Positions 1,335-62,175 of a DNA stretch of 64,000 nt are shown here, in pieces. The translations under genes were made by a program, and so were the position numbers. Source of the DNA: Bilabrum cf. latius (taxonomy: Eukaryota); assembly GCA_965178125.1 (NCBI GenBank), contig OZ237760.1, positions 496,001-560,000 of the forward strand, in the 5' to 3' direction. Each line of letters begins with the position of its first letter. The first letter of the stretch is position 1. Below the pieces are notes generated by a model. It was not told the origin of the DNA, did no database searches, and saw nothing but the letters and a program-made list of their open reading frames with translations.

Positions 1335-1538
1335 GGCTGGCGCGTTGGCCCGCTCTGTCGCCGTATCGAGCCACGCCTGGCCTGTAAAGAGAGCTAGGTG
1401 AGATTGTTAGACCACCAGTTGGGCTTGTTGGACAAGCATGGGGTCCAGCCGCCCCGGTGGGGGAGATCTAGAATCCAGATCAGATCTGATCTGATCGCAC
1501 ATGCCTATGTGCTTCTCGTTGGCAACAATTAGAAGCAT

Positions 1539-7988: not shown

Positions 7989-8116
7989 TGCATGAGCGGA
8001 GGAGGGCCACCGTGGGCAGTATGTGCGTGGGTTGCGGGCGCCTTGTGATTTGTAGCCCGCAAATGAGAGCCAGAATGCTTGGCTAGCTCTGTACATGCCT
8101 CTTTTTGCCGTCATTA

Positions 8117-8920
8117 TTACTGCTTCTCAGGATCGGTGGCTGCCTATTGTAAGCCTCGATCGGACTAGGCCTGTGCCTGCTAGTAGGCCTGTGCCTGCAT
8201 GGCAGCTGCCCATACTGCAGCGTCCTCATCATCATCCTCTCCATCTTGCTCTTTGCCCGTGCCTTTCGGCGTCCCGTCTTCTCCTGTCGCGGCGCCATCG
8301 GTTGCTCGGCTGCTGCTCGCATTGCCCTCACCCCACCCTGCCGGTATGTTGGGATCCACGCGTCGGCCGTGGGCATCCAGGACCACGGCAGGAATCACAA
8401 CCGTGCTTCGCTGGACCTGATCGCTCGACTGTACGTCGCTGGAGCCAACCAAAGCCGCACCTGCCACCGATTCTGCCTGATCCTCACTGGCAGGTGGAGC
8501 AGGTTCCCCTGCGGCAAGTGCTACCTTGGGGACTATCACCTTCTTGCCGTCCTGCACAAGGACCTGCCCGCCACCAAGCGACTGACTCATTCTCTGCATT
8601 GACTCTGCGACCGCAGCTTCTCGGATCCTGCGCTGCTGCTGGACCTACCGGCCGACTGCAAACGCGCCGCAAGTCGTCCCTGCGATGGCGCCACCAGCAA
8701 GCATCAGACTCCTTCGAGCGGGCGCTCTGCGGTTCAAGTACGGCCAAATATTAGACATTGTCTTTCCTCCTAGAGCAAAAGCAAGTGCGCAGCCAAGCAT
8801 GCCACCCGCGGCCGCACCTGCAACCACCCGAATCCTATCATTTTCCCTTCCTTTCGATACTTCTCGTTGCTGATTAGCGGCCACTATCTCAGGTAGCGAT
8901 ATTTTACGCTCCTACTGCAT
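8117..8920 (-). CDS. Hypothetical membrane protein with two Gly-rich hydrophobic segments, ~267 aa; ends TAA-TAA-TGA
   Basis: M-Q-*-ERKISLPEIVAANQQ...VVAGAAAGGMLGCALAFALGG...LMLAGGAIAGTTCGAFAVGR*VQQQRR...QAQAY*QAQA*SDRGLQ*AATDPEKQ, then a triple stop at 8111-8119. Confidence 0.65.
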
Positions 8921-14289: not shown

Positions 14290-17200
14290 ATGCCGAAACG
14301 ACAAAGAGAACCAGATCCGAGGCAGAGAACGCTGTTCCAAGTGTCATAGCAGACATTTAAACCACACTCTGCCACCGGTGCAGGCTCCACTAGTCTTCTG
14401 TCGGGTAAACCAGGTGAACGCAGCTCCGGCCCGTTGCTGCTCACCTCTCGACGAACGATGAAAACCACCCTAAAAGACATAGCCTAGGATTGGTTTGATC
14501 CGTCAGTTGCTCGAGCATTTGTATTCGATAGCCTGGTTAGATTTCGGACAGCATTTCCAGGCGGTGGGCCAACTCTACAGAACGCAATTGAGGGGCTTGC
14601 AGCAAATTCGAGGATTGAAGTCCAATTTAAGCGCGACGAGGCAAATGAGGTAGACTAGAATGCGATATTGATAATGTGTAGCGAAGAGCCGTTGGGTTTT
14701 ATCGAGGCAGACGTCGCTGCGTTCACTGCGCCGCTGCTCGACAGTGGGCTCATCCAAGCCGGCGCAGAACTCAAGCGAGACCAGGCGCTCGCTGGCGCCC
14801 ACAGCAGCACGTGTGATTTGCAAGTTGTTGTTGGTATCGCGCTTCAAGACGATAGATTAGTGGATGTGGTGCACGATGAAATGCACAAGCTGGGTTTGCG
14901 TCACTCTGGAGCACCTGCTTCCGATGCGTAGGCAGGCAGCAAAGAACCCCTTACTGCTTCACTGATGCTCGCCGCAAGAGGGGTTGCGCGGTTCCTTGCA
15001 TCCGGCACGCCTGGCTCTTTGGCTGCTGCTGTGCCAAGCGCGGCTCCGAAGCAGAAGCGCCGTAGAACGGACGATGCAGTGCAGCAGCTCGAATCTGCTC
15101 ACGCTGCAGTGAACGCTGGACGAGGAAGCCGCAGCTCCAGCCGGTCCGGTCCTAGTCCAGTGGAAGGCACGAACGGTGTCCTGCCTGGATTCACGAGCGC
15201 ACGGATGGCCGTAGGCAAAGCCACGCTGGGTCTCAGCCTCGTCGGCCCGACAAGCGGCGGAGCCTCTGCCGGCGCGGGCCGGACCTCGTACGGCGTGCTG
15301 GCATCTGCGGCTGCCGTTAGAGGCATGCTGGCCGCCTCTGAATCGCCCGAGGAAACCGCAGCCCGCGCAATGGAACGTCGATCAAAGGCCCTGGAACGAG
15401 CCAAGAAAGCCACGGCACGCGCGCAGAAGGCCGCTGCCCAGGTGCAAGCGGCGCAGAAGGTGGGTCCCGTGCAGCAGCGGCTGCGCGACACATGGATGCT
15501 TCGACCAAAGGCAGGGCCCTCCAGCGCCCCTATGGTTTCCATCTCGGACGAGGAACTCGCTGAGCTGCTGCCTGAGGAAGGCTTTGCGGAGGGTGCCAAA
15601 GGGAGCGGGAGCAGCTCACCGGCAGCGCCATCTGCTGCAACAGGATCATGTGCAGGGCCAGGGCCCAATCACCGGGCTAGTCCACGATCGCCGGCACAGC
15701 TGCTGCCCCCCAGGCTGCTGCTCCGCATCTTTGCCACGAGGGGCTTGAGCACCTCTCTGCTGCTGGGCTCAGCGCGCTGCGTCTGTCGGCACTGGAAGAA
15801 CGCAATTGACATCCCTAGCTTCCTGCGGGACCGTCTGAGTTTCCACCGGCTGCATATCAGGGCGACCGAGGGCGAACCAGGTGGTTCCAACTCGGGAATG
15901 GACGCGGATCTAGGTCAGGCTACAGCCCAGCCGGAAGGCGCATGGGATCCCTGGCGAGGCCCTTCCGACCTGGCATCTCTGTGCGCCCACATCCGGGATT
16001 CTTCCGCGCACATGCCGCTGGTGGCCGCAGGCAAGCTCATGCAGCTGGCAGGCCTGCCTCCATGGGCGGTCCGGGCCGGCAAGTTGATTCAAGAGAGAGG
16101 GCTGCGCGTGACCCCATCCTAGCTATAGGCGGGGGCGTCCCAAGCAGGACCGGCTGCAGCCACGTTCGAGTTCGAGACGAATTCAGGAGGTTACCCTGCC
16201 CTGCTCGTGTCGCTGCTCTTCCTGCCTCCCATGTATAGGCGAAGATTGGCCGAGACCATCTGCTCGATGGGGCAGCATTCCGGCGTCCTGCTCGCTGCCG
16301 TCCGGCGCAGCCGAGGGGAGTCGGTTGCTGCTGCATCGCAATCGTCAGGATCTCAGGACAGCCACAGGTCGGCAGAATGGGCCAGCGGGCAGGCAGGCGA
16401 AGCCTTTCTGTATCGCGTGCTGCTCGCGATCGTGTCACCATCTTGGGTAGCTGCAAACGCTCCTCTACTCCCATAGATGCTCCTGTCCCCGCCACCTTTA
16501 TGTCGGCCAGCTTCACCTTCGCCTCCTGCTGGAAGCGCAAGCGATGCACAGCCTGGCGGTGATCCCGAAGCCAGCGCAGTGCAGTCGAGGTTGCAGCAGT
16601 TGGTAGACGGCACCGAGTCGCGCATGCACATCTTCACCGATGTCTGTGCGGCTCAGATTCCCCCAGCTATGGCGTTGGGTGTTGCGGATGGGGCTGGCAT
16701 GCCAGATTCCGAGGAGGACCTGATGATGACACATGGGTGGATGGGGGGCAAGCTTGCAAGCTTGCAATCCACATCTGCATCCCCATCTGCATCTTTGTCG
16801 CCAGCAGCAGCATCGGCAGTATCTACACTTGGGGCGATCGCTGCCAAGCTCGGTCCAGAGCGACGTGCCAAGACAGGCGGGTACGGGTGCGTGCAGGGAT
16901 TCCGCTGGGCCGGTCAGCGTATGCCTCGGCCCGCGCTGTGGCCTCCACTGTTGCGACAGGTGGCCGAGTCTGGAGCCATGTCGTGGTCAGGCCGCGCTGC
17001 CATCGATATCTTGATGGCAATCCGCAGCGTGCAGACCCGCATGCCCGTCTTTCCTTCTGAGCTGGGATCCATGGCCGGTCGCAGCACCGGCGGGGCGAGC
17101 GACCAGGCGGCCACCGCGGAGCAGATTCAGATCATCAAGGCAATGGATGACGCCAGGGAGAACGATATCGTCAGGGTGCTTGCCTATGCGGGTACCGGCA

Positions 17201-20200
17201 AGACCACCACCCTCAAGATGCTGGCAGAGAGAATGGGAGGGGCCCGTGGGTCCATCCTCTACGTTGCCTTCAACCGCGTGGTGGTGGAACAGGCAGGCCG
17301 AGAGTTCCCGCCCTGCGTGGAGCCCTCCACGATGCATTCCCTTGCCAACTCATGGGCCAGATACGAGGCGCCTGCAGCAATGCGCGGAGTAATCGCAAAG
17401 CTTGGACACTCGATGCCATCCACCACAAAGGCCGGGGTGTGCGAGCTGCTTGGGCTGCCCCCTGGGCACGACTTTGCAGATCTCGTGACCAAAACCCTGG
17501 ATGCGTACATGGGTAGCGACGACGATTTTATCGGCCAGCAGCACCTGCCGCGGTACATCGACGTGGTGCGGAAGGACGAGCAGAAGAACATGCACTCCTC
17601 TCACCAGAGGATGAGGCCGCCTACCAGCATTGCTGTCCGCTGTCGATGGCTGCTGAACGCATGGTTAGCTCGCTCCAACGGCAGGCGTGGCCCGCATGTC
17701 GGCAAAGCGCGAGAGGACGCGGCAGATGTGTGGGGTCCCAATGGCAAGCATCGGATGCACCGGCTCTTCATGGCTGATGACACGCTGCCTGTGGCGAGAC
17801 TAGTCTGGAGAGCAGCGGTAGATCCGCGCGTGACGGCCGTCCGAATCAGCCATTCTGTATACCTGAAGCTGTGGCAGCTGGCGAGACCCAACGTGTAGCG
17901 AGCCAAGGGTAGGCCTCGGAGGGCGCTGCTGCTGGACGAGGCACAGGACATTTCAAGGTGCGGTGCTGCCGCGCTGCTGTCGGCCAAGTGCCCCCTGATA
18001 CTGGTTGGCGACACTCATCAGAGCATTTACTCCTTTGCAAACGCGGTTGATACCCTGAAGCGAAGCACCGTGGCCCGAGCGCTGGCTGTGAGCAGACGAC
18101 CCCCTGTCGTTCTAGAGTCGTTCGGCGTGGTGCTGGATGACCCATCGAGTGGCAGCAAGCCGCCCGCGAGATGGTCCTCCAGCCAGTCGGCCATGCAGGC
18201 ATGTGCCCCCGATGCCCGCGTCATCGGGGCCCGCCTAAAGTACTCGATTGGGTGTGCCCCTGCGGATTCAACCCTGCGCTCTCTAGGATGTCCGCTCATG
18301 GTGCCAGACGTGCAGGGCGGGGTGCCCATGCCATCGGTCCGAAGTGTGCCGCTGGCAGAACGACCGGCTGCACCTCGTCCCACGCGAACTCTACGCCTGA
18401 CGCGGTCCTTCCGCTTCGGTGAAGAAATCGCTGGGTTTGCGACGTGGGTGCTGCAGAAGCTCAAGGGCGAGAGAGAGCCAGTGCTGGGCCTGCCGCCAGC
18501 CCTGAGGCACGACGCTGTCCGGCTGTGGTCCGCGAGTGAGGACGCTCGAGCGGACTACCCGCTACGATTCGTGGATCAGCAAGGCCGGAACACCTGCCTG
18601 GCATGGAGTCCTCCCGGACCGCCTCTACATCCTGCTGCAGATGCCAGACTGGAAGAGAAGCCAGTGGTGGAAGACGAGGAGGAAGATGAGATGGCAGCGA
18701 ACGGTGCGGTGCGGGCAAACCGTGCTGGCGCGCGCAGGCAGCGGGCACGAAGGATAACAATCGATTTGAGCGACAGCGATGAAGATGGTGACCGGCATGC
18801 CAGGACCGGTGCTGGGGGCGAAGCTGGGTCCTCCAGCGCGGCTGCCGCGGGATAGAAGGAGCAACCCAAAGAAAAGCGCATGGTATGGCGTGGTACGCTG
18901 TCTGATAGGCTTAGAAGGCAAGGGGGAGCCGCTCGCGTCCTACTGGCTCTGCACGATCGGTCCAAGCCGCTGGCTCCTGGCCACGAATCGAGGACGGCCT
19001 CAGAGGGGGGTCAGGCAGGGGACATGGTGATCATCATGTCTTCGGATGAAAGCAGCAGCGACTCGGAGAGCGAGGAGTAGGATTCCCCCGTGCCACCTCC
19101 AGCAGATGCGGCTCCGCGAATGCAGCCTAGCTTTGGCAGCTATGACGGGTTGCAAACCCCCGAGCTGCAAGCGGAGCTGCAGCGCGCCCAGCATCTGACA
19201 GCATCATCGCGCGACCGGGCCATTGCTCGGGTTATTCGGCAGCAGCGCGACGAGGAGGATTCTGCCGCTCAGCAACAGGCAGCGAGTGCCACCGCAACAC
19301 TCTGCAGGAGCCATGCATACGCGTCATACAGGCCACAGCCAGGGTCAGCGCACCAGCGGCCCGCCATGGGGACCGTGGCCGTACTGTGCAGGACGAATGC
19401 TGGCATTTTTGAACTCGCTGCCCGCATGTGCAGCCTATCCGTAAGTGGTAGGTCTTCAGCGTCTGCTGCAGCTAGCTCGTCCGCCGCGCCAGCCATGCGA
19501 GACGCCAGATTTTTCGTGCAGGGTGGGGTGGGCCGGCTGCAGCTGGACGTGCTGCTTGAGGTGGCAGAGTTCTGCCAGCACCATACGAACGGACCCGAGC
19601 GCCCCCGATTTGTCTTTGCCGATGAATCGCCTTCTCAGGGAAGCGCGGCGTCTGCCGCAGCTGGTGCGTACGGCTCGCAGGCATCGCAGTCCTCGGCAAG
19701 GTACAGCTCGCAGGGCACGGGTACCTATGGCAGGGCAGGCGGGTCACCCCGCAGGGGCGCAAGCTCCTAGGGCGGCGGCGGTCCGAGATGGAAGAACCGC
19801 ATCCTGCGCAGCATCCATGGGTGGGAGGCCCTGGTGGAGTACGCCAAGAAGGGCAAGGACGCCGACATGAGCCGGATGGTGGGCGCTGTTGAGACCTTCG
19901 GGGCTGACCACATCCCTGCGCTGGTGGAGGAGGTCAAGAGGAGAGCACAAGGCAGGGCAGAGGAAGCCGACGTTGTTCTTTCTACGGTGCACCAGGCCAA
20001 GGGGCTCGAGTGGGACCAGGTGGTGCTGGGGGACGACTTTGGGATCTCAGCCGCGTTCGATGCTCTCGTGGCTGTGCCATCGCTGCCCACTGTCCTAGCG
20101 ATGGCAGACAAGAAGGAGCGCCTGTACGAGGGGACCACAGCAGAGACTGCCAATGGGCTAGAGGCTCGTGCGACAGGCATGTAGGACTCGTCAGGGCTGG

Positions 20201-21102
20201 GGGACCTCGAGGGCTTTGGCTTGAAGGGTGGGTCGGCATCTGGAGACGTGTCGCACAGCGAGGCTCCGTCGAGCTCATCGTCGTCATCGTCATCTGCTTT
20301 GATCGACGCACTATCTGAAGCTGGACCACCGCATGCCCCCAGCGCGGCATCGGGCAGCTCTGGGCAAGCTGCCGCATCAGCTGCTGCCGGTCCACGGTCC
20401 TCTGGCTCACCGGAAGTGCCGCCACAGTTCTTGTGTCGCGTGGCTCGCTTGCGCGAGAGCCGGCGCATGTCTCCTCGCAGGCAGACCTTGGCGTACATGG
20501 GGCTGGACGGCCCGCTGCTCGACGACGAAGGGGGCTCCCTCGGAGGCAAGCACGGGGCGAGGGGCCCCTGGGCCACGCAGATCGCTTGCGGGGGCGGGAT
20601 GCAGGAGATGCTCTCGGCGCGGACGGCGCTGGATGTGGCCCGGCCAGACGACGCCGACGAGGTCCGGAAGCAGACGGCGAGGCTGCAGGAAGAGGGCAAC
20701 CTGCTGTACGTGGCGGTGACGAGGGCGAGGCGGAGGCTGTGGCTCAGCGCCCAGCTGACTTCCTGGGTGCTGCGCGTGGGGGGCTGGCTTCATCCGGTGC
20801 TGGTGGGCTGCAAGGGACCTCCCGCTGGCGCTGCGAAGGGCAGTCAGCACGGCGTAGAAGCTTCGGCTGCTCCCGGGCCCGCCGGTGGAGCGGGGCTGTC
20901 GCAAGGCTCGGGGCTGCAGCAGAGCTAGTCCAGCTGCGGGAGTGATCCCAGTAGTAGAGGGGAGCAGGGGGGATAGAGACCCTTGCTGTAGGCACTGGTT
21001 GGGCCTCCCGGTGTCTCTGGGTACTTGACGGGGGCGTGGAGCGAGTGGCACTTGCCATGCTCGCTGGGGGCTGTGCTGGGGCCTGCCAGTCGCCCTGACT
21101 GA
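14290..21102 (+). CDS. FBH1: FBH1-like F-box DNA helicase (UvrD/SF1A) with extra N-terminal HIRAN-like domain, ~2,270 aa, intronless
   Basis: Single frame through ~14 TAGs. HIRAN-like FKRDEANEVD*NAILIM...LGFIEADVAAFTAPLLDSG. F-box LLPPRLLLRIFA...SARCVCRHW. UvrD motifs AYAGTGKT, LYVAFN, LLLDEAQD, LVGDTHQSIYSF, LTRSFRFG, LCRTNAG, STVHQAKGLEWD and NLLYVAVTRARRRL. TGA at 21100-21102. Confidence 0.85.
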
Positions 21103-22214: not shown

Positions 22215-22435
22215 ACGGTGGCCGGGCTCAAGACAGTTTCGACTGGGCCTAGATCTCTATTTCATTTTACGGCTGAAAGATTACTATCATTTATTGCGAT
22301 TTGGAGCCATGGTGTTCATTGAATCCCTGTGAATGTGCAGTAGGCCAAAAGAGACTAGATTGCAGCGGGCCTGGGCCGGCCGATCACACTTCACCCGACC
22401 AACTCCGTCAAAATAGAACTCCCAATCGCCTCGTT

Positions 22436-24013
22436 TCACCTTACTACCTTCAGTGTTACCCTCCGACCTGCCAGCGGCACAGCGGCCAGCTGTCCCACAG
22501 CCGTGCTTGCATCCCCCGCGCTCTGCATCGTCGCCCTGGCGGCGGACCCATCGGACTTGACCTCCACGGCGGTTGGCGCCAGACCGGCCATCTGCAGGAA
22601 ATCCCTGATCCCGCCCTCATCCACCTCAGGCGGCAGCCCCCCAATCAGCACAACGTTGCCGGCTCCGGGACCATCCCCTGCTGCTGCACCTGCCCCTGCA
22701 CCCCCAGAAGCAGCCCCTGCCCCTGCCCCCGCCCCCGCCCCCATGCCAGCCCCCTTGCCCTGTTTCCTCTTGGCCTCCTTGGCCCGCTGCCTGTCGATGT
22801 AGGCCGCTGCCTGCTGCAGCTCACCGGGGGCCGGGATGCACTTCCCCGCCCAGACCCCCTCTATCCTGAGCGACGACCTCTCGCCGTAGTCTCCCGCGCA
22901 CGCGCCCACGATCTCGAAGCCCTTGCCCCCCTGGAGGCCCACCTCGTCGTCCACTGGGCTCACCAGCTGCAGCACAGAGTCTATGTACAACATCAGCCTG
23001 CCGCTGATGAACACCATCCGGAGCCAAAAGGGGGTGTTGGGCACCACGGGAAAGGGAGGTCCCCCCGCCGCCAGCGCCTTGCCGCTGAAGACCCGCCTCT
23101 GCGTGGCCCAGGCCTGCTTGCGGTACCCCAGCTGCAGGACCAGGGACTCTGCCCCCGTGCCGGATTTCGGGGGCTCGATGCGGATGCTGACGTGGCCAGC
23201 CACCTCGGACTGTGCGTTCTGCTCCGGTCGCTTGATGTGAATCAACGAGATCATCCGGTCCTCGCCCTTGAGCCTGTAAAAGGAGCAGCGCAGAGTCACC
23301 GTGTTCACGTCGGCGCCGTACGCCGGCGCCTTGACGATGAGATCTTCCCCGCGAGCCGCGTCCCACATGCTCCCACTGTCTGCACCAGCCGCTGTTTCGC
23401 TGGAGCTGGAGCCTTCGGCTTTGTACAGAGTGTGTCGAAACAACAGGGGATTACCGCTGTTTTCGAGGCCACCAGCCGCAGCCACAACCGCTGCTGAGCC
23501 CTCCCCTGAGCCCTGAGCTGCCTGCTTCCCGACGCTCTTCATGAGATTCGACAGAAGCGACGCTCCCCCGGATGACCGAGCGCTGCTTGAGCTGCTGGCG
23601 GCCATCGCTGCAGCTGCAGCTGTGCTTGAAGGGCCCTGGTCGAAATCGTTAGCTCCAGCTTCCGTATCGTCAGCCACTGGCATGTCAGCAGCAGACCGCC
23701 CTCCAGATTTTTGAGATTCCTAGATACTACCTTGCTCATCGGCGACCGCTCGTTGCGCTGCATGCGCAGCCGATTGCCTGCCGAGAGATCTCTCGCTAAC
23801 AACGGATCGAGGAGGAGGTGGGCGCGATCCTGCCACGCTCTCTTGCGGCTGTATGGCGTTGTAGGATTTAAATGCTTTTGTATATGCTTCGTCCTGGCGA
23901 AGAGACTCCTCGATGTCACGCTCGAGTTCTGCATCCTCCGCTTGCAGAGCGCGCCACGCCTCAAGCTCCGACGCCGGTAACTGGGCCCGATACTGCGATG
24001 TAGAACCGATCAT
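22436..24013 (-). CDS. Hypothetical protein with UIM-like motif, galectin/ConA-like beta domain and C-terminal RRM, ~525 aa
   Basis: ORFs 23720-24022 and 22436-23683 are in frame across one TAG. RRM signature NVVLIGGLPPEVDEGGIRDFL...GRRVTLKV. Galectin-like PFPVVPNTPFWLRMVFISGRLMLYIDS. Start codon uncertain. Confidence 0.6.
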
Positions 24014-24128
24014 ACTATTCACTGCGTTAATTGTCTTCTCAGCAAGGGGTCATGCCTCGGAAGTACCAATGAAATTGAGCTGAGTGGGTTGCTTGTGTTT
24101 GTGCACTGCACGCATCTGCCAACCATTC

Positions 24129-26051
24129 TCAAAGCGGCTCGCTTTCCCTGGTGGATAGCATGCTCCTGTACATACCTACATGCCTTGGGTCGAGCTTGAC
24201 TAACAGCTCGACAAGTGCCTCTCCCTCGGGAACAGCAGCAGCTGCTGCTGCTTCCTCGCCGTCTCCTTCCCCGGCCCCCGCCTCCTTCCCGCCGACACCT
24301 GCCTCTGGCTCCACCCCAGCCATCCGCAGCTGCCTTCTCACCAGGTCAGCGGCCAGCAGCGGCCACTTACTCCCTGGCTCCAGCGCGACCAGCCTGGCCA
24401 GCTCTTTCAAGTCCTCTCGCAGCAAGCGGCCCGCCTCCGCCTGCCAGGCCAGCCCCTCCGCCTCTTCCTTGGGGGCCACTGGGTCCAGGTCAGCCACGGT
24501 GATCCCATGCCATGCAGCTGCTTGAGGCAGGGCTGGAGCTGGGCCAAGGGGCAGCTTGAGCCAGGGGTCCCCATCAGTTGCCGGAGCCGGAGTCGGGGCA
24601 GGGGCAGGGGCAGGTGCAGGTGCAGGGGCAGGGGCAGCGGCACGGGCGGCTCTACTTTCTTCGGTGCCTTTACCTGCTGGCTAGGTAGCCGCTACCTTGG
24701 TCGCCTCGCCAGACTTGATGTCCCTGATGTCGGCCCCAGCCGCGCCTTTTGCCGCCTTCTCCTCCTCATCATCATCGATTGCAGCCCCCATTGTGCCCAA
24801 CTCAGCCAGGTACATGTCCCAAGGGGAAGGGGCAGACGGGGCGGCGCGGGGCACACACGGCAGCTGGGGCGGCTTCCCCCTCGCCATGGCACCAAGGCAG
24901 CCCGCCACCCACCTGTGGTAGATCCAAGCGCTCTAGTCATCGGGCTCAGTGAACACGGCGGTGCGGATCCTAGACAGCTCGCCGCTGAGCCCGGCGGGTG
25001 TGACGTGGCCGGCAACCGAGAGCGCTTGTGCTCTCTGGTGCCACGCCGAGTAGTTGCTGAAGTTGCGGTCCAGCTTTTGTTGCGTGTACTCCAGGTCCTC
25101 GTCTGGTTTCTGCCCTGCCCTCGCCGCCAGCCACCGCCTATAATTCCAGCAGTGGAAATTGCGCTCGTCTCTCGTCAGAAACATGTCACAGAGATCCAGC
25201 TCGGACTGCAGATCTACCAAGGGCGGTGTGGCATCAGATGATTGCTCGCTTCCTGCGCTCGCGCCCGGTGCTGCCCCAGCAGCTGGTGCCGCAGACCCTT
25301 CAGCGCCTGTTGCGCTGGTGGCACCGAGGCCGGATGGGTCGGTCTGGGAAGCTGCCCCTGCTTCTCGTTCCGGGGCGTGGCGGTCATGGGTGTTAGTTGT
25401 GCCTTCCCCAGTGCTCCTTGCCCCGGGATCCGAGGCAGCAGCGGAAGTCAGGCCTGGACGTCTCGGTCGACCACCGAGTGCCAGGGCAACGATCCACATT
25501 CGGTGGTGCCATGTGCAATAGCTCTTCGGGTTCCGTTCCCCAAGCGCCTTCGCAGTCAAGGCTAGCTCTCGCTTGAGCGTCAGTGTCGCCTGTTTCTGAA
25601 TAGATTCCTGAGAAAGGTCCCGAGCATCTGCCCAGTACCTCCATCGCCGCAGGATCAGGAACTTTCTGTGAGCCCAGATAGTATAAACATCTGGATTTAC
25701 CGCTAACACGCTGTCCATTAACTTCCATATCTTTTCACCCTCCGAGCCAAGCTGCTTCTGCGATGGATTCAGCTTGAGATTGACAGCACAACGACAGCAC
25801 TAGTACAGCGCTGCGGGTGCTCACAACTAAAGTGAGCAATTCAACATACCTATTTGATGGATGCCTGAGCAAGACTTCGGAATTTTTTGATCTTTGCTGC
25901 CATAGCGGCCTACTCAGCATCCGACGGCCCTTCGCCGGGCGGCGGTCTCCGGCGTCCATGCTGCGACAGACTGGGAGTTGACAAGTTGGTCAACAGGTGC
26001 AAACTTATTCCAACTAAGAACTCATAACGAAATTTTTTTGTGGCTTACCAT
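24129..26051 (-). CDS. RABGGTA: Rab geranylgeranyltransferase alpha subunit; exons 26049-26051 (ATG only), 25850-25960 and 24129-25757
   Basis: M|HGRRR N-terminus. PPTA repeats VNPDVYTIW, NPKSYCTWHHR, DERNFHCWNYRR, NFSNYSAWHQR and FTEPDD*SAWIYHRW. C-terminal LEPGSKWPLL and LVKLDPRH. Two GT-AG introns, 4 TAGs, TGA end. Confidence 0.92.
25758..25849 (-). other. Spliceosomal intron 2 of RABGGTA (92 bp)
   Basis: AAATAG|gtatgt...atcgcag|AAG; phase 0. Confidence 0.75.
25961..26048 (-). other. Spliceosomal intron 1 of RABGGTA (88 bp), directly after the ATG
   Basis: ATG|gtaagc...tcgcag|CATGGA gives the canonical MHGR start. Confidence 0.85.
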
Positions 26052-26300: not shown

Positions 26301-29300
26301 ATGCCAACTATAAACACACTCCCACTGAACGAAGCGCTATCGTAGCTCAAACAAAGGCATGTGCAGCATGCAGTTGAAGATGCTTGCGCTGAAAGGAGCA
26401 AAGGATCAGCCGCATCCAAAGGGCCCTAGGCTATTCCACGCAAGCCAGCTGTATTGCTGTCCCGGTCTGGGCGTCTCAAGCTCCGAGTGTTGAGCACAGA
26501 CGCTTCCTTATCATAGACCAAGATTATTAGAGCCGGATCGAGCATGCGAGTCGTCGTTGCTCTCGAGAACCAAGGGTAGAACCAGTGTACAGTGTGTAGC
26601 GTCGTCGTCCAGGACGCCCCAGCTCCTGGGCAGGGTACCGAGGTCTTTGCCGACTCAAGCGACCACCGAGCCGACTCTCGCACGTCTGCTACAGTTTTAA
26701 AAGCAGCGCCGGTGCCCTGGCAACAAGCGGTGGCTCTGCACACGAAATTGCCCGGCGCCGGATCCAGATCCAATAGCCAGCCGGCGCCTGAATAGACGAA
26801 AGCAGCGGCCAGCGGCGAGCAACCTGGAATCAAATCCGTCTTGAAGGATACAGTATCGAATCAGGACCCTGACTCCCAGCTGTACATTTCCCAGCTTGTT
26901 TGGATTCGGCGCGGGCGGGACGGCAAGCAGTCCACTCTCCGGCGCCGCATCCGCCCCCCTGCAGGCGGCCCCACGGTCCAGAGCTGCAGCGAGACGGGGT
27001 CCCAGGCGCTCGGGAGCAGACAGATCTTGTTCTCTGACTAGCCGAGGGGCGTGATGCAGCTCGGGCCCGGAGACAGGCTGATCGTCGAGCTTCTGTCCGG
27101 GCGGCTGCCCAGCGAGAGCGAGTGCCGCAGCATGCTGGTGTTTGCCTGCGGTGGTGCAGCCACCGGCGTGCCGCTGGACGGGCTGCTCGGCGTGCGCCTG
27201 CTCGGCCGATCTACTGGAGAGCCATACCTGTACAACCTGCGTGGGGGGCTGGATGACGAGTGGGTGGGGCAGTTCCTGGCCATGTACCCAGTGAGACTTG
27301 CCTGTTCAAAGAGTCCGGCCGCAGCCCGAAGTGTTTTGAATGCATGCGATACATTGACGTGCTGCTAGTGGTACTCTTTCTCCCCCGCAGTCCGCCCAGC
27401 CGAAGGTACAGGCACTTCTGGACGACGCATGGACGAGGGAGCCACCTACAGTCGTAACCAAAGAAGGACGAAGAGGCGCCTCTACGCCGCCCAACGAGCC
27501 CATCGCGCTTCCTCAGTGGCACCTCTCTCCAAGAGCTGCCGTCATTTGTGCCGCGGGCGACGACGGTCCCCTGGGCTAGGTTACGCCTAGCGTCATGCGT
27601 GGCGGGTGGCGGCGGCGGATGCACAACCTGCAGATCGCACACTTTGCACAAACTGAGCTAGACTTGCTTCAATTCGCCCAGGCGGGCGTGCCACTGCGCT
27701 GTAGTGCTGGAGTTGCCACGCAGGACGGGACATACAGGGCGTGTGCCCCGAACGAAGTGCTGCTGGATATCGAGTGGACTAAGGAGCAAGCTGCCCTTTT
27801 CGGGGATGCAAGGCCTAGTGTCCTGACGGGGGACCGCGTTTTGGTGCGACCACAACTACCGGGGGGCGTGGCAGTAGATGCGGCAGGCCCCGAGTCGGGG
27901 GCCGCCACGGGCTCGGGGGCCAGTTCAAGCGAAGCAGCTGCGGGCAACGGGACTAGGTCGGGCCTGGCTCTCCAAGGTGATATCGTGTTCGGGACACTCA
28001 GCTCAAAAGGTTGCGTAGTTCGCCTCACGCAGCGACAGGCAATCGCGCTCTTCCGTGGAAGTCAGTTCTTGAGTATGAGGAAACTCAAGGGGCAGTTCGG
28101 CAGGCATGCGCGCAAGGCCTAGCCTAGAACGGCGGCTGCTCCAGTTGTGCCTTGCGACGTTCGTTTCTCGCAGATGCTGCAGCAGGACCGCACCATCCAC
28201 AGGGCCATAGATGCAGTGCATCTGGACCAGCTATTTCCCTCCCCTGAACTTGTGGATATCAAGGCTTTCCAAGCCGAGCAGGATGCCCAAGCGGCTGGCC
28301 GGCCAATGCCGTTGGCCCCGCCGGTGTCGTCCGCTGCACTGGATGACTGGCAGGAAGCCGCCATCGAGTCCTTTGGCCGCAAGTCTCTCAAGCAAGTCCC
28401 CTAGCTCGTGCTGGGCCCATTCGGGTGCGGGAAGACGAGGACGCTCGTGGAGGCGATTCGACGGTGCGCGCTCAGTGGTCCGGCGCAGCGGCTGCTCGTG
28501 TGCACGCACACCAACATGGCAGCCGATCTTCTCCTGAGCAAGCTTGTGAGCTCGTTCAAGCCAAAGCACGTGCTGCGGTTGTATAAAGCAGAGCAGTCGA
28601 AGTCATCCATCGGTTCTCAGATCAAGGAGCTCAGCAACGGGGTTGCCTTGAAGTACGCAAACATCAAGAAGCCGAAGGCGGGCCAACAGGGCCCCTCCGA
28701 GCTGGAGGTGCCTCCCTTAAAGAAGCTAAGGCAGTACAAGATTATCATCACTACCGTGGTTACCGCTGGTAGGCTGTTCTCAGCCGGCTTGCATCCAGCC
28801 AGGAGCGATTCAGTGAGTGGTCCACCCCCGGCATGGGGTGCTTCTAGCCGTTCGGCCGCAGCCTCAGGCAGAGCGGCGAAGCACGGTCGTTCGCCGCTAG
28901 ATAGCCACTTCACACACCTGCTAATCGATGAGGCAGCGCAAACAACGGAGTGCAATGCAAGCGTTGCGCTCTCTCTGGCAGGACCGAACACCAAAGTCAT
29001 CTTGTTCGGGGACCACATGCAGATGGCTGCCGGCACAGCGAGCGAATCCGCAGACAGGCTCAGATACCCAAGGAGCCTGCTTGCCCGCCTGTTCCCAACC
29101 AGGACGTATGCTGATCCATCTTTGCCGAGCAGCCTATGCCGTTGCGAGCTCCGCAACAACTACAGGTCGCATCCGCAGCTTATCCTGCTCTCCAAACACC
29201 TAGTGTACGGGCACGCGGTAGATGCCCGAGCTATTCATGTCCCGCTCATTCCATTCCCCCCATCGTCGCCAATTTACCCAAGTGCCACAGTGTTTGTTGC

Positions 29301-31776
29301 AGTGAGGCACGTCCAACAGCCTTCGCGGAGTCCACGGGCTGCAGGCACATGGGAAGACCTGTACAAACCGGTAGGGGCGATTTCTTCAGCCATGTCGGGC
29401 CACGCTGATTTTCTTAACAGCCCAGAGGCAGTTGCCGTCGTGAGCATCGTCCAGCAGCTGCTGCAGTCCTCAGGCATCACATCGCCAGAGGACATTGCAG
29501 TCGTCACCCCGTACCGCTCCCAGAAGAGACTCATTCACAAGTACCTAACCGGCGCGGGCGTGCCTCGGGGCATCCGAGTGGACCCTGTGCATGCGATTTA
29601 GGGTGCCGAGTTCAAAGCGGTGGTGGTGAGCCTAGTGCGTACCGTGTGGGACGTGCCAGAAGACAACTTGGGCCTGCCGCAGCGTGATACCATTGGAACA
29701 ACGGGACGTAGTGGCACGGCAAGACCAGGGGCGGTGGTTCGAAGCGGGGGCTGGGAGGAAGCCATGGCAGGTGAAATGCCATCTAGCGAACAGGTGCAGG
29801 ACGCTGCTGTGCTAGAGCACATGGATCGGCTGGGCGAGGCGTACGCTGGGAGTTTCATTAACGACGAGACTGAGATAGCGAGCGCCCCCCTAATGGAGAT
29901 AGATGCAACAGCTGGATCAAGCCAGGCAAGGTCTCCATCGAGACCTGGTGCTTCCCTGGCTGCCGCTGGCAGAGCCGACATTGCCAATGCTGTGCGCAGG
30001 GAGCGTGAGCGGGCCAAGCAGGTCAAGCCCATCGGGTTCTTCCGAAACCCCGCTGCATTCAACACGGTCATGACGAGGGCTCGGTCGCTGGTGATCGCTG
30101 TCGGCGACCCCCACCTGCACGTGATGGATCGATGCTGGAGAGCACTAATGCGATCCAGTGTGGAGAGGGGGAAAGCGCTGGAGGCTTAGCTTGACGCCAG
30201 GGCCCTTGCCAAGGTGGACACGTCTCGAGTTAGTCTGGTGCAGTACCTCCCGACCATCGATGCGGAGCTTGATGCACGGCGAGAGCAGTACGCAATGTCC
30301 AAGGGGACCCACCTGCTTCCTTGCAGTCCTTCCATAAGAGTAATAGAGGGCAAAGGCGGTGACACGCTTCAGGGCATTGCGATGGCACGATTCGGTGGCG
30401 AGGCGGCTGCCTCAGCGGCGCAGCTTCGCATGGCGCAGGAGTCCGCGCGCCAGGCCCAGGAGCAGGCCATCAAGCAAGCTGCAGCCGACATGTCGGGCAC
30501 TGGTGGTGCTCTTAGCGGCTTTGACGACCCCATGCGAGCAAGCTAGCTCAGTGCAGGCGCTGCAGGGAGTATGCCAGCTGGTCCTGGGCATGGCATGCAT
30601 CCCGGCATGAGATACGTGGGTGGCGTCATGCCACCGATGCTGCCTCAAATGATGTCACGCGGATTACACGGTTTACCGTTTCATGGCGTGCCGATGGCAC
30701 CACGGGGCTTCATGGGAGGCGGATCTCGCCAAGGCCCCTTTATGCAGGGGCCTGGTTAGCCTATGGGTATGCCTATGGGTATGCCTATGCCGCAGGGGTT
30801 TATGATCCAGCATCCAATCTACGGTGGACTTCCACTACCTGCTGGTAGAGGGCAAACAGAAAAGGTCAAGGGGGAAATGTCTGAACGAGGCAGGTCGGGA
30901 GCTGATGCTGCACCAGGACCAGCATCGTAGACGTCCGCAGCTAGTGGGCAGGCTACGTCAGGCAGGAAGACTCGTACGTCGTTCAAGCTGGACCCTAATG
31001 CACCAATATTTATGCCTACTGCGAGTATGTTTGGGGGCACTCGTGAAGCAAGCGCCGCTCATTGGAGCGGCTAGATGCCTGGACCAGGTGGTGGCCGTAA
31101 TCCCAATCCAGGTGCCGGGCCAGGGGCAGGTGCAGATGCAGGTGCCGCACATGGCGCCAGGACCCATGTGGCCGACCTGGTGCTGCCTGAGGAGCCCAAG
31201 ATGGAAGCTCCCAGCGAGCTGCCCTGGCCCGTCGACAAGAGCTCGGAGCTCATGTGGACACTGTTGCACCCCACGGGGGGGCAACAGCCGTAGCACTGGG
31301 TGCGGTCGGCAGATGCTAGGACGATGCTGCTAGACGGCAGCCTGCGAGCGTGGGCTGCGCCAGGACCGGTCAGCCAGGTTAAGGCATGTCTTATTGTTGC
31401 GAGAGAATCTGAAAGCCCGACTGCCAGGACAGTCTTGACGGAGGACGGCAAGCACTGGCAAGCTGTGCCACTTGAAGGGGTACCCCTTCAGAAGGCGTTT
31501 CCCCAGCTGCAGGACGCGTTCTTGACCGCACCCCTTTCTCTTGTTAGGATTGTAGATACGAGTCTGGTGGTGCGGCCAAGGAATGCGGAAATGGTTGTCC
31601 CGGGGGGCTCATGGGAGGAACTAGCAGCAGCAGGGGGTGCGGCCGCGAGCGCAAGGGATGCGCCTGCCAGAGGGTCCTAGTCTGTGAGTGGGGCGGTATC
31701 GGGCGCGGGTGTTGGGGATGCAGCCGTTGCAAATCCTCGGGAGCACTACCTTCCAGCGGAATTGCAAGGCGACTGA
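26301..31776 (+). CDS. UPF1-like SF1B RNA helicase of HELZ/MOV10 type with C-terminal PAM2 motif; intron 27291-27390; 5' end uncertain (possible upstream exon from 26134)
   Basis: Motifs GPFGCGKT, VCTHTNMAAD, FTHLLIDEAAQ, LFGDHMQM, LRNNYRSH, IAVVTPYRSQ, VHAI*GAEF and FNTVMTRARS. About 17 in-frame TAGs. TGA at 31774-31776. Confidence 0.85.
27291..27390 (+). other. Spliceosomal intron in HELZ-like helicase gene (100 bp)
   Basis: gtgaga...ctctttctcccccgcag; explains the frame change. Confidence 0.8.
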
Positions 31777-36085: not shown

Positions 36086-39000
36086 TCACGTAAGGATCCC
36101 GTCCTCCTCGTCCGAGGAGCCGCCAAAATCGGGAGCGTACGATTGCTTCTTGTTCTTTGGCCGCGATGGTGCAGCGAGTGCGGCGCCGGCAGACTTACCA
36201 GAGTTGCTTCTGTTCCCCTGCTACTGCTTGTGCTCTCCTGCTGAGAACGGGACCCTTCCCTTCTATCCGGATCTGCCGCCGTAGCCCCCGTTCAGTTGCT
36301 GGTCCTGCTGGTGCTCCGCATGCACGCCCAGACGGCCCAGCATGAGCAGCTGCTTCGTGTAGCGCATCTTCAGCACGGCGATCGCCCGATTGTACCTGAT
36401 CTGCCGCTCGGCGTGCTGCAGCTGCATCTGTCTGGCGATCCTCTCGCGCGGCGGGAGTGCTGCGTGCCCGTATAGCTCGATGGCAAGCAGCTCCATCAGC
36501 GACAGGAAGCTGATCCGGAGCCTTTCCGTCGGCATTTTCTCCACGATCTCCATCGCCTTTGCGGTGGCTCCCAGCCGCATGTGCAGCTTCTCCTGACGCC
36601 TCGCCTCCGCGTCCATCCCAGTGGCAGCTCCCGTGCCTGCTCGGGACACCATCGCGGCGAGCTTGCCAGACACGCTTCCTCTCGACACCATGCGGGAGCC
36701 GAATCTGGACCCAGACCTCGTTCTGACCGATCCCAACGTGCCCGACATCTTCCTAGTGGACTTGCCGCCGTGCTTGGCCTTCAGGCCCGGCATGGTGCCT
36801 GTGAGATCCCTTGGTGTGGCGAAGGTGTCGTCCTCCTCTCCGCTGGAGCCGTGACTCATGGCAGAGTTCCCTGCCAGGCTGCTGGATGCGGTAATGCCCT
36901 GGACCGGCAGGTTTTTCTTGTCACCCAGCAGCCTGTGAGCGTTCATTCCCATGGGCAGCGACTGGGTGGCAACGTGGGCCGGGTGTGATCCGGACATAGC
37001 TGGCCCGACGGCCATGCCAGGGCTAGACTTTAGCCTGCCCTGGTGGCCTGCCGGGCGCGTGGACTGGGCCGCAGATAGTGCTGATGAAGGCGTATGGGCA
37101 CCGGCTTCGGGTGCCATGGCGGTCGAATCCTTCCCGGTCTGGCTGCCAACCCCTGCTCCAGGACTAGATCCAGCGCTAAGCAGCCCCACGTCCCCACTCA
37201 GGCCCCTCGAAGCCGTTCTCTTCCTCTCGTTGTCTGCGTGCATCGCAGCCCCGTGCTTCTTGGACCGCTCGTACCAGGCTGGCTGGCAGCTCTTCGCAAA
37301 CGTGGTGGCATGCTCCGTTCTATCGGACACTTCAGCGCCTCCCAGCATCAGTTCCTGTCTAAACTCAGCGTTGCTAGCAGCTCGCGCCTCTAGATGAGCC
37401 GCCTGCAGATGGGTCTCAGTCTGGAATGCGATTGCCACACATGCCGTGTACATCATCTCCTTCCACTTTTTACTCTCCTTCAATTTCTTCTTATCCTTCT
37501 CATCCGAGCCCTCAAGCTTCTTCTTGAGCCACTGCTAGAAGCCCGAGTCGGCCTCCCCTCGGATCGATCGAGACATGGCAAGGCTGCACTTGGTGCAAGG
37601 CTGCACGGCGGTGTCCCAGCAGGAAGGATCGGCCTCCTCTGGAATGGAGGTCACCGGCAATGGCACGGGTGCCGGCTACGGCTTGCGCGCTCTCCCCAGT
37701 ATCTCCTCCTCAGTGGGTAGCAGGGACGATTTCCTGGTACGCGGCTCGCGCCCTTGGCTCTTGGCGCGTCCGATGGCTCCTCCGCCGGTTTCGTCCTCTG
37801 AGGCTTCTTGATTCACTTTCTTGGCGCTCGTAGGAACCTTAGCATCTGCTGCAAACCGCGTGTGCTTCTACACCATCAGCCCACCATGTCTGACATCTGG
37901 CATGGTACCAGCGTGCTCCAAGACTCTACCGCTCGACTCGCGAGGCAACGGGCTCTTCCGGTCATTCCTTGCGCTCTAGGGACGCGCGTGCTCCGATTTA
38001 GACAGGACGGTCGGGGCCTCATTCGTTGCAGTCCCCGGAAAATCACCCCCATCTGAGGCGGAACGCATGACCCGCACGCCGCCGTGCTGCTTTGCGATAG
38101 CCTTGGCCCTCTTGTTCGTGGCCTCCTCCATCATTGCGCGGTTCATGACGGTATTCATCTTGTCGAATTTTGGCGTCGCCCAGTGTGGCTTTCCAATGGC
38201 GATGAGTTTGGCCACGGCTAGTGCGGTTTCTGCCTTCGCTTGTTCCAGTCGGCGCTCCTCGGTCCAGCCGGCTGCAGCCTGCAAGATCTGCATTATGTAC
38301 TTCACACGGACGTACCCGCCCCTCCGCGGGTTCATCCGGTGCTTGTCGAAGTGGTCAAAGCTATTCTTGAAGAGAGACACGTCTCCGAAGCCAAGGGCCT
38401 TCTCGGAGGACTGGAAATCTGTCTCGAATGCCTGGATAACTGAACCCACGAAGAAACTGAGGACCGTCATCTGGACCATGACCACAAACGCGAACCAAAA
38501 CAGCGGGGCCCAATTCGTGTCGTTCCTGCAGTCATGGTACAAGAGCTGCCAATCCTCCCCCGTGGCCGCTCGGAGCATCGTCATCAGCGCCGCACCAAAG
38601 GTACGGAAGTGCGCGTGCCTGTGGAAGCCCTCGTACGGCGTGTTACCTGGTACCGCCGCCGCCTCCTTGGCAGCAAGATAGTTAGGATCATCTGGCCCCG
38701 CGTCCAGCGAGACATTGAACTGCTCCGCCAGGTTAGGGTAAGGCCTGATATAGTCCGCGGGCGAGGCTCGTTCAGCCGCGATTTCTGAGTAGAGCTCCAT
38801 GCCAACAACAGCGAAAAAGAAGAGAGACATGAACAAGAACACGGTCACGATGAAGATTGGCTTTGCAGAGTTCTGCAGGGTGTTGAGCAGCAGCCTGAGC
38901 TGGGGAGACAGGTGCAGGAATCGCAGCACGCGGGCCACTCGAAGCGCACGTCCTGCTTGCACGCCGTACTCGAAATTGGGGGCAAGATTCACGATGACAG

Positions 39001-50938: not shown

Positions 50939-51513
50939 CTGGCTAGCCTGTGTGCAAATTAAATAACTTCTGCACTTTGTTGCGCAGGCCACGACACAGT
51001 AGCTTTCGATTTGCTGGTAGCGATTCGTACGGCCACTTTTGTGCTGCCGTTTCATTTCTTCTTCTTCATAATTTGCATGCAAGAAGCCTGCACAGCAAGC
51101 AAGCGTCGTATGGTGCGTTGCCGCTCGATGTAGTGGACGACTAGCCTGGATCTACAGAATACTATTCTTCGTGAGGTCTCTCGAAAACCCCATGATTTGC
51201 CTAACATTCGATGAATTCGTCTGTGCTGAGGGATACAGCCTCCAATCCTGACGAACACGTCAGCGGTGGGAAAGGGGGTTAGAAGTACTTAACATAGAAT
51301 AGATTGACCGATGGCTTGGACTGATTAGTCTGCCAATCTCAATCCTGCCCGAAATATGAGGTCCACCCGCTTCAACCGAGGGACACGGTCCTGGCCCTCC
51401 CGTCTGCGTGCCAGTGGATCCGCTCGAACGTGAGGCATGTTCCAGTCCACGAGATGACAAAAATCATTTTGCAATACTACAACGATATTAGACGATTCCA
51501 TGCATTGAAACGT

Positions 51514-53628: not shown

Positions 53629-53864
53629 GCACTTTTCCGGGGTACGGTTAGGTTCTTCTCGCTGCTGCAATGTCTCTAGGCCATGTGCAAGCAGCAAATC
53701 CAGTCCTAGATTCTGACAGACAAATCCATTGGATGCAGCAGTTAACACCGTCAGCGTTGCCCACGTCAGGTGTAGCCATACTTAAGAAGATCCCAACCAA
53801 CATCCGGGATTAACATTTATAGCAAACACAACAACACTCCACAAAGTCCGTGGATCCTGGATTA

Positions 53865-60326: not shown

Positions 60327-62175
60327 TTATCTCTTCCGTGAACCCTTGGCCGCGCCCGCCCACTGCCTTGAAAACCCGTACGCCACCACCCCCAGCGATG
60401 CCACCACGGCCACGCCCCCGAGGATGCCTCGGAACAGCTCCCCGCGCTTCCTATCAACCGCCTCTGCCCTCTCCCTCGCCCTGTCCAAATCGATCCCCGC
60501 CTCAAAGGCCTCCACCTCAACCACATCTCGCGCCGCAGACTCCTCCGCGAACGCATTTCTGTCGGCGTGCTGGGCCGTTGCGACCGCTCTCTCGGCCGGA
60601 TTCAGCATGAAGTCAGCTGCCCTGGCGTAGTGGCGCAGCAATGCAGCGTAATCAGGCTCCAGATCCGTGGAACCGGGCCCGCCAAATCCACTGCCTGTTC
60701 CAGTGGCAGTGGCAGTGCCGGCCAGAGCCAGCTCATACCCCCCGCCCGATGGGCTCCCAGCTTGGGGGGGCGGCGTTCCAGCCGAGGCGCCCCCGTTTGA
60801 TTGTTCCCTGGATTGTTCCCTGGAACAAGCCGCCTTGAGCTGCGCAAGAGTAGGTCCATGGGCAAGGTGCAGCCTGCTGTGAAGGACTGCAAACATGCTG
60901 CGACCGTTTGAATCCGTAGCGCCCGAGGCACCCGATGGTGTTGTTCCTTTATCCCCGCCTGCTTCAAACACCCAGGCCGGTAGGGGCCGTGCAATGCACC
61001 CCAGCACACTGCCTCGCTTTGCTTCTGCCTCCATCAGCTCCTACAGGGCCTCCTGCCCAAGCTCGCTGCCGCTCCCTGCGACGCTGGCACCTGGCACCGA
61101 ACGAGCCGAACCAGCCCCCTCGGCAGCAAGGCCCAGCCCCTCTCTCAAACGCTCTATCTCGTGATCATGCTGCAATCGCTTCTACTTTCCTGCAGAGGAG
61201 ACGTGGTATCCAGCCTGATCTGTCAGGTAGGGCCTGCCCACTGGGTGGAAAGGGGAGGGGCGCTTGGGCGACGATCCGCCAGCTGCACCAGCTGCCTCTT
61301 CCCCCGGCTCTGATTTCGTGACGGATCTCGGGCTGAAGACGGGCAGCACCCCGCCCCGTTCTGCGATTGCGATAGACCTCGTGGCAGCGGCCAGTACCGA
61401 GGGGGGCCCCAGCCTGCTGCGCTGCTGGCACGCTGCTTGCACGAGCCAGCGCATGGGCAGCGTGTGCCTCACTGCGTGAAAGTGGCCGAACAGGAGAGCA
61501 TCCAGGGTGCTGGGGGAGGACCCAAAGGACCATGCCCCCTCTGTGTCGCCAAGCAGCGCAGCAAGCGCTCTGTATGCGACGAGCGTGCGCCTCCTCGCGA
61601 CGCGCTCGCTGGTCCAGCCCCTGGACCTGAGTGCCGCGAGCACGCGCTGCCTTAGTGCGCTTGCCGTGAGTTGGGCTGGAAGCCAGCCCATTTGTCTTCG
61701 GAGGCATGGCAGAGTGTGCTTGCCGTACTCTTCCTCGTCTGCCCACGCTCCGAAGAGCTGCGCATCTCGCAAGTCGTCGAGCACGAGGGAGCTGTACGCC
61801 GTGCAGTTCGACCTATCTCTGTGTCCAAGCTTGGCATCCACGACATTGTGCACCTCATCGCGCACAAGCTCAACGACCGCTCGAGCAGCAGATTCACCAC
61901 TGAACGTTTCGCGGCTCGAACCATCAAAGACAACCGGCAGAGCACCAGAGCCCGACAGCCTCGGCATCGTCACATTATCCACTGTGAAAGCGATCCCTCC
62001 AAACCGAAGCAGAGCCTGCAAATGGAATTCATACAATCCACAGGGAACCAAACAGTGTGCGAAGCCATCAAAATTCTCCAAGAAACGAAAGCAAAACTCC
62101 GTGTGCAGTACCAACATGGCTCACCTCGATAGTATGCTCCTCAAAAAACTGCTAGACATGCACAGCTTCCTACAT
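60327..62175 (-). CDS. Metaxin-like mitochondrial outer-membrane protein (GST-like fold, C-terminal tail anchor); probable exons 62125-62175 and 60327-62015; TAA stop
   Basis: EALLRFGG...SGSGALPVV, AYSSLVLDDLRDAQLFGAW and AYRALAALLGD...FGSSPSTLDALLFGH. C-terminal transmembrane segment GILGGVAVVASLGVVAYGF plus basic tail KGSRKR-TAA. TAG at 61182 read through. Exon 1 model is tentative. Confidence 0.8.
62016..62124 (-). other. Probable spliceosomal intron in metaxin gene (109 bp)
   Basis: GAG|gtgagc...tttgcag|GCT; phase 0. Confidence 0.6.

Follow-up and report, generated by a model that had tools for sequence, protein, structure and literature searches.

In-frame UAG codons in a GC-rich protist nuclear genome are very probably read as glutamine, with UGA as the main stop

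We analysed a window of 64,000 nucleotides of protist DNA whose genes, judged by sequence comparison, very probably follow a nuclear code in which UAG encodes glutamine genome-wide and UAA and UGA are stops, UGA being the main one. This rare code was previously known from few protists; here it is shared by at least two species and is accompanied by unusual stop usage. The 17 gene models of the window (18,930 codons) contain 147 in-frame TAG codons, with at least one in every model, and no in-frame TAA. TAG makes up 15.6% of the Gln codons in these models, 15 of which end in TGA and two in TAA. That the residue present in the protein is Gln is read from alignments with homologues.

A TAG codon at a conserved glutamine of RabGGTase-alpha

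An earlier note on this DNA had described a TAG in place of the Gln in the D-Q-S-A-W motif of RabGGTase-alpha; its position and frame were confirmed, and the reading as Gln was supported. The codon lies on the minus strand at 24933..24935 (the plus strand carrying the reverse complement), in frame in the RabGGTase-alpha open reading frame, where the surrounding residues read TAVFTEPDD-TAG-SAWIYHRW. It is codon 313 of a 580-residue model that has TAG at codons 18, 38, 313 and 397 and a TGA stop (Table 1). The LEPGSKW and LDP motifs that the note had described downstream of the TAG are in frame with it and align with homologues. The note was silent on the roughly 147 codons of this kind in the window, on the exclusion of TAA from the recoding, on TGA as the main stop, and on two upstream exons, one of them with two further TAG codons; the one at 25850-25852 (exon 2) is TAG in the relative L001 too.

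The identity of the gene is well marked by its PPTA repeats (Pfam PPTA, 124.8 bits, E 2e-37, in exon 3) and by its similarity to solved structures, being closer to RabGGTase-alpha (130 bits, E 1e-36) than to farnesyltransferase-alpha (48 bits), which supports the assignment to RABGGTA/Bet4. The protein has the PPTA repeats, MHGR start, D-Q-S-A-W motif and C-terminal motifs in common with RABGGTA/Bet4, differs in its long Ala/Gly/Pro-rich inserts and is ordinary apart from its codons.

Alignment to homologues, the check that had been proposed for this site, revealed a Gln-dominated column (Gln in 134 and Ser in one of 135 proteins), although the 135 rows include cluster members and many oomycetes and are not independent. 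Gln also occupies the column in solved RabGGTase-alpha and in all 12 matches yielded by a first homologue search, which was swamped by low-complexity words. Among 80 metagenome loci, 63 matched the motif pattern, with CAG (28), CAA (27), Ser codons (6) or TAA (2) at this site, and 17 gave no match. Replacement of Gln by Ser in six loci (L008, L015, L016, L026, L062 and L068) indicates that the column is not strictly invariant.

Table 1. Coordinates of the features discussed, in positions of the window
Feature	Position	Strand	Observation
TAA TAA TGA ending a 267-codon frame without annotation	8111..8119	-	Tail rich in Gln; the TAA codons fit either reading, stop or Gln
RabGGTase-alpha exon 3	24129..25757	-	Ends in TGA; TAG at 24933-24935 and 24681-24683; PPTA match
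RabGGTase-alpha intron 2, 92 nt, GT-AG	25758..25849	-	Skipped in contigs of runs X5, X6 and X7
RabGGTase-alpha exon 2, N-terminal HGR motif	25850..25960	-	TAG at 25910-25912 and 25850-25852; 0 other letters in contigs
RabGGTase-alpha intron 1, 88 nt, GT-AG, inferred	25961..26048	-	Matching layout in L001; three spliced contigs end at 25960-25961
RabGGTase-alpha inferred start ATG, end of exon 1	26049..26051	-	Restores the MHGR start of homologues
TAG at a column mostly Tyr/Phe/Leu/Ile in distant homologues, counter-example	28402..28404	+	Tyr in 53, Phe in 41, Leu in 15, Ile in 14 and Val in 10 of 141
TAG at the motif V Gln of the MOV10/UPF1-like helicase gene	29599..29601	+	Gln in 139/142 matches
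TAG facing Gln in 92%-identical relative P0143	30187..30189	+	Helicase alignment
Voltage-gated channel frame, 4,482 codons	36086..49534	-	38 TAG, no TAA, TGA end
TAA ending metaxin-like gene	60327..60329	-	Preceded by a hydrophobic stretch and a basic tail; strongest case for a true TAA stop

The TAG codon is retained in spliced transcripts

Contigs of three sequencing runs from two studies (X5, X6 and X7) cover positions 24651-25757 and 25850-25960 with no other letters and no gaps. These contigs skip intron 2 and an intron of the neighbouring cytochrome b561 gene, indicating that they derive from spliced RNA. Their RNA origin follows from the splice joints, as no library record says RNA and X5 was scored 'probably DNA', and contigs, as distinct from raw reads, drop rare variants. 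The unchanged TAG in spliced contigs argues that, in the majority transcript, the flagged codon escapes both splicing and editing. Splicing around the codon, which the earlier note had considered, was not seen, since the spliced contigs cross it intact. We therefore regard the observation of the TAG as confirmed, and its translation as Gln, proposed in the same note, as supported by the near-uniform column together with these contigs.

Under a standard code, the flagged TAG would have to be spliced, edited, locally read through, or part of a pseudogene or an assembly error. The introns of the RabGGTase-alpha gene and the absence of a library record for X5-X7 lean towards this reading, but it is largely refuted and its probability is next to negligible: the alignment is colinear on either side of the TAG, the spliced contigs of three runs retain it, four further runs contain all sampled words of the stretch, such codons recur 147 times across 17 genes, and a like pattern is found in L001. 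Splicing around the codon, editing and a pseudogene were each rejected.

Near-identical sequence to positions 22400-26000 was present in public runs under three organism labels (A, B and C), and a diverged form of the same interval was found in X9, a DNA run under a fourth label, with many differences. The occurrence of runs under several labels perhaps reflects a flagellate travelling along in other cultures. The near-identical sequence under three labels suggests that RNA, and perhaps cultures, of this organism exist.

In-frame TAG codons extend across the window

With TAG opened as a sense codon, stop-free frames of at least 450 codons rose in number from 7 to 26 and the longest grew from 526 to 4,482 codons, whereas opening TAA produced no change among such frames and lengthened no long frame, and opening TGA alone gave 24 frames, none longer than 932 codons. 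This contrast indicates that in-frame TAG is not a product of chance. Frames left open at TAG were the source of the 17 models, so any gene that stops at TAG would have been missed. Pfam matches above the cut-off were found in 10 of the 17 models, and the N-terminal parts of some may contain unseen introns.

Several genes of the window are unusual in size or build. The voltage-gated channel gene at 36086-51193 (minus strand) is very large and has long linkers, and its 5' part is seemingly split by short introns near 49535-49870. The plus-strand gene at 14290-21102 encodes 2,270 residues that combine a HIRAN domain, an F-box-like stretch and a UvrD helicase, and contains 15 TAG codons; we take it to be FBH1-like. 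An inferred 100-nt GT-AG intron at 27291-27390 (plus strand) links the frame at 26301 to the MOV10-like helicase as one frame of 1,791 codons, and contigs of X5 end at 27278 and resume at 27391, flanking this intron, with no joint listed. At 1500-3050, an 11-residue tandem repeat keeps several frames open on both strands, of which a minus-strand frame with nine TAG codons was chosen as the gene. A 1,949-codon frame without annotation ends in TAG TGA TAA (53862-53870, minus strand), the sole case of a TAG directly before a stop. ARAGORN and Rfam gave no match in the window, which contains neither a tRNA gene nor one for eRF1.

Glutamine is the residue best supported at TAG columns

Profile scores summed over 10 TAG columns favoured Gln (13.3 bits) over Lys (4.2), Glu (2.4), Ser (-2.2), Tyr (-7.1) and Leu (-11.0), Gln being the best of 20 residues in a sum that counts one column in both species. 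The ranking of residues at these columns resembles that at 42 ordinary Gln columns. The TAG in helicase motif V of the MOV10/UPF1-like gene falls on a second near-invariant column, occupied by Gln in a 90%-identical relative (P0144) and in UPF1 structures; at this column and the flagged one, Glu, Lys and Tyr occur in no homologue.

Helicase fragments of about 90% identity provide direct exchanges, with Gln opposite two TAG codons of the window. In all five of these fragments, the window codon that follows the last residue is CAG (3) or TAG (2), codons that constitute 5.4% of the frame; of five more distant fragments in two clusters, three end before a TAG and two before a Trp codon where the alignment is poor, the stop codons of the fragments being taken as TAG, not read.

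A reading of UAG as another residue (Glu, Lys or Tyr), or as having a second meaning (another residue, or stop) beside Gln, is highly improbable, yet some columns point towards it. The TAG at 28402..28404 falls on a Tyr/Phe-rich column, where the two nearest full-length matches have Thr and Ser. Two L001 TAG columns favour Glu (73/135 and 89/135) with Gln second, and one TAG column of the channel gene is Glu in solved calcium channels. The model that ends in TAG TGA TAA is also compatible with an ambiguous UAG. In a weak test in which eight residues were tried, Pfam bits summed over seven TAG columns of four other genes failed to separate the polar residues (K 344.4, E 343.2, S 343.1, Q 342.4, R 340.8, Y 333.5, L 330.8 and W 329.0), Gln trailing Lys, Glu and Ser by 1-2 bits. 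The same sums exclude Leu, Tyr and Trp by 9-13 bits, and UAG as any of these three was rejected. Against another residue stand the two near-invariant columns, the direct TAG-Gln swaps with close relatives and the 9-bit lead of Gln in the profile sum, all of which favour Gln. A weak neighbour-context test ranked Gln first at one of four window sizes, and a homologue search with Hus1 returned one match, with Leu, Lys and Gln opposite three TAG codons of the Hus1 gene.

UAA is not used as a sense codon

From the A/G third-position ratios (0.29-0.39), about 43-57 TAA codons would be expected in 18,930 codons if TAA were sense; none was seen, and CAA, GAA and AAA are used freely in the same models. 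Because the models were defined as TAA-free, TGA-to-TGA frames were examined too, and these contained TAA solely upstream of the first ATG (three codons) or at the end (three codons). UAA is thus not in use as a sense codon. It likely acts as a stop, as suggested by two gene ends, that of the metaxin-like gene and that of the frame ending in TAA TAA TGA (Table 1). Read-through of the TAA of the metaxin-like gene would append 60 residues behind a putative tail anchor, as we presume its C terminus to be.

If UAA also meant Gln, as in the ciliate-type table 6, it would be almost unused in a GC-rich genome and UGA would be the sole stop. The scarcity of TAA ends (two of 17 models, one being TAA TAA TGA after a Gln-rich tail) is consistent with such a code, but the absence of in-frame TAA despite free use of CAA, GAA and AAA, the failure of TAA opening to lengthen any long frame and the 60 residues that read-through would add behind the tail anchor make it quite improbable. 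Table 6 was rejected in favour of UAG alone as Gln.

The code change is shared with a relative

L001 is a syntenic metagenome contig of 6.2 kb on which four neighbouring genes have orthologues, with protein identities of 44-74%. It has CAG at the flagged site and in-frame TAG codons of its own elsewhere, and its three gene ends are all TGA; in the three complete orthologue pairs, TGA ends the gene in both species. Eighteen TAG columns could be aligned between the window and L001, one of which is TAG in both, and the partners at the other 17 include Gln (4), Ala (3), Glu (2) and Gly (2). Gln is the commonest partner (4/17, against a background of 3.8%). Speaking against Gln, TAG faces it in only 24% of the L001-aligned columns, compared with 47% for ordinary Gln codons. 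On these alignments, the UAG-to-Gln change is common to at least two species and older than the split from L001.

In two trees of RabGGTase-alpha, the window and L001 formed a pair (SH-aLRT 100). This pair sits on a long branch surrounded by sequences that bear no label, and falls outside the oomycetes, the amoebozoans, the animals and a group of eight stop-recoded loci presumed to be ciliates; both are single-gene trees with weak deeper forks, the second comprising 43 chosen rows. Seven metagenome loci (L038, L056, L060, L061, L069, L078 and L080) have TAA at Gln-leaning columns, and most also in-frame TAG. By their codons, these seven are UAR=Gln organisms, and those long enough for the tree form a clade apart from the window. 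Relatives were absent from scans of prokaryote genomes and viral contigs.

The window has about 60% GC and short GT-AG introns, and includes genes for FAP210, a SHIPPO-repeat protein and a metaxin-like protein, the first two being flagellar. FAP210 matched two solved FAP210 proteins at 110 and 40 bits, which we take to be those of Chlamydomonas and Tetrahymena, respectively. These features suggest a GC-rich, intron-poor and probably flagellated protist. On genome style, we would guess at a Cafeteria-like heterotrophic stramenopile. The code change of the window is probably of independent origin. A broader claim, that UAG came to mean Gln independently and throughout a clade in a group of eukaryotes without a reported nuclear code change, with UAA nearly idle but uncaptured, is put forward tentatively, as its chances fall a little short of even.

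Discussion

TAG occurs in all 17 models, is kept in spliced transcripts and interchanges with CAG or Gln in relatives. The flagged TAG would then be a synonymous swap of an ancestral CAG. By analogy with the account given in passages of PMC5304391, a tRNA-Gln with anticodon CUA, one change away from tRNA-Gln(CUG), may read UAG and not UAA, and eRF1 may have lost or weakened its recognition of UAG. With UGA dominant and UAA rare, the organism allows two explanations for the persistence of UAA to be told apart: its role in termination, and simply the absence of a tRNA that carries the anticodon UUA. Standard-code gene callers fragment the proteins of this clade, which hides it from protein databases.

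Comparison with known genetic codes

UAA and UAG almost always change meaning together, and UAG-only changes are found in a handful of nuclear genomes. The common joint change, UAR=Gln (NCBI table 6), occurs in many ciliates, hexamitids, ulvophytes and Amoeboaphelidium; the window has TAG=Gln in common with these codes but differs in the absence of TAA as sense among 18,930 codons, and its RabGGTase-alpha lies outside the clade of presumed ciliates. All three stops are reassigned in Condylostoma, Blastocrithidia and Amoebophrya. A code of that type was rejected for the window, as opening TAA brought no change, opening TGA gave no frame above 932 codons and genes end at TGA. The rhizarian exLh and the Tara ciliates read UAG alone as Leu. 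Scotinosphaera reads UAG as Ser (PMC8271138). In these UAG-only codes, UAG is uncoupled from UAA as in the window, but the residue differs (Leu -11.0 and Ser -2.2 against Gln 13.3 bits in the profile sum).

Full-text searches, which took in few subscription papers and no supplements, returned no report of a UAG-only Gln code in a GC-rich flagellate or stramenopile nucleus, and in the accessible portion of a 2024 stramenopile review (PMC11412368) the term 'genetic code' appears in one reference title only. According to a giant-virus catalogue (bioRxiv 10.1101/2025.09.26.678796), no isolate derives from a host whose code has changed; if the clade-wide change proposed here is real, the clade could be the sort of host that giant viruses with a matching code infect.

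The closest codes are those of a fornicate and three ciliates. Iotanema spirale (Fornicata), an anaerobic gut flagellate, has an identical inferred table, with UAG at conserved Gln columns and UAA and UGA not used as sense, and of its 119 complete genes, 104 stop at UAA and 15 at UGA (PMC5304391), compared with 15 of 17 in TGA here; the likeness is one of code only, kinship being outside the comparison. The ciliates Hartmannula sinica, Trochilia petrani and Protocruzia tuzeti likewise read UAG alone as Gln, as reported in sections of PMC11687900. UAG is a minor Gln codon in H. sinica (18.5%) as in the window (15.6%), with most genes containing one, whereas the preferred stop in Hartmannula and Trochilia is UAA (91.9% in H. 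sinica, with UGA at 8-13% in the two; PMC11687900) and in the window is TGA. That paper argues that the stop meaning of UAA is fixed by its being the main stop. If the tentative claim of an independent, clade-wide change with an idle UAA is true, it would break this ciliate explanation, in which UAA keeps its stop meaning through its use at the ends of most genes, and the clade would represent an extant intermediate on the way to the common UAR=Gln code. With about 60% GC and UGA as its main stop, the window is unlike both Iotanema and the UAG-only ciliates.
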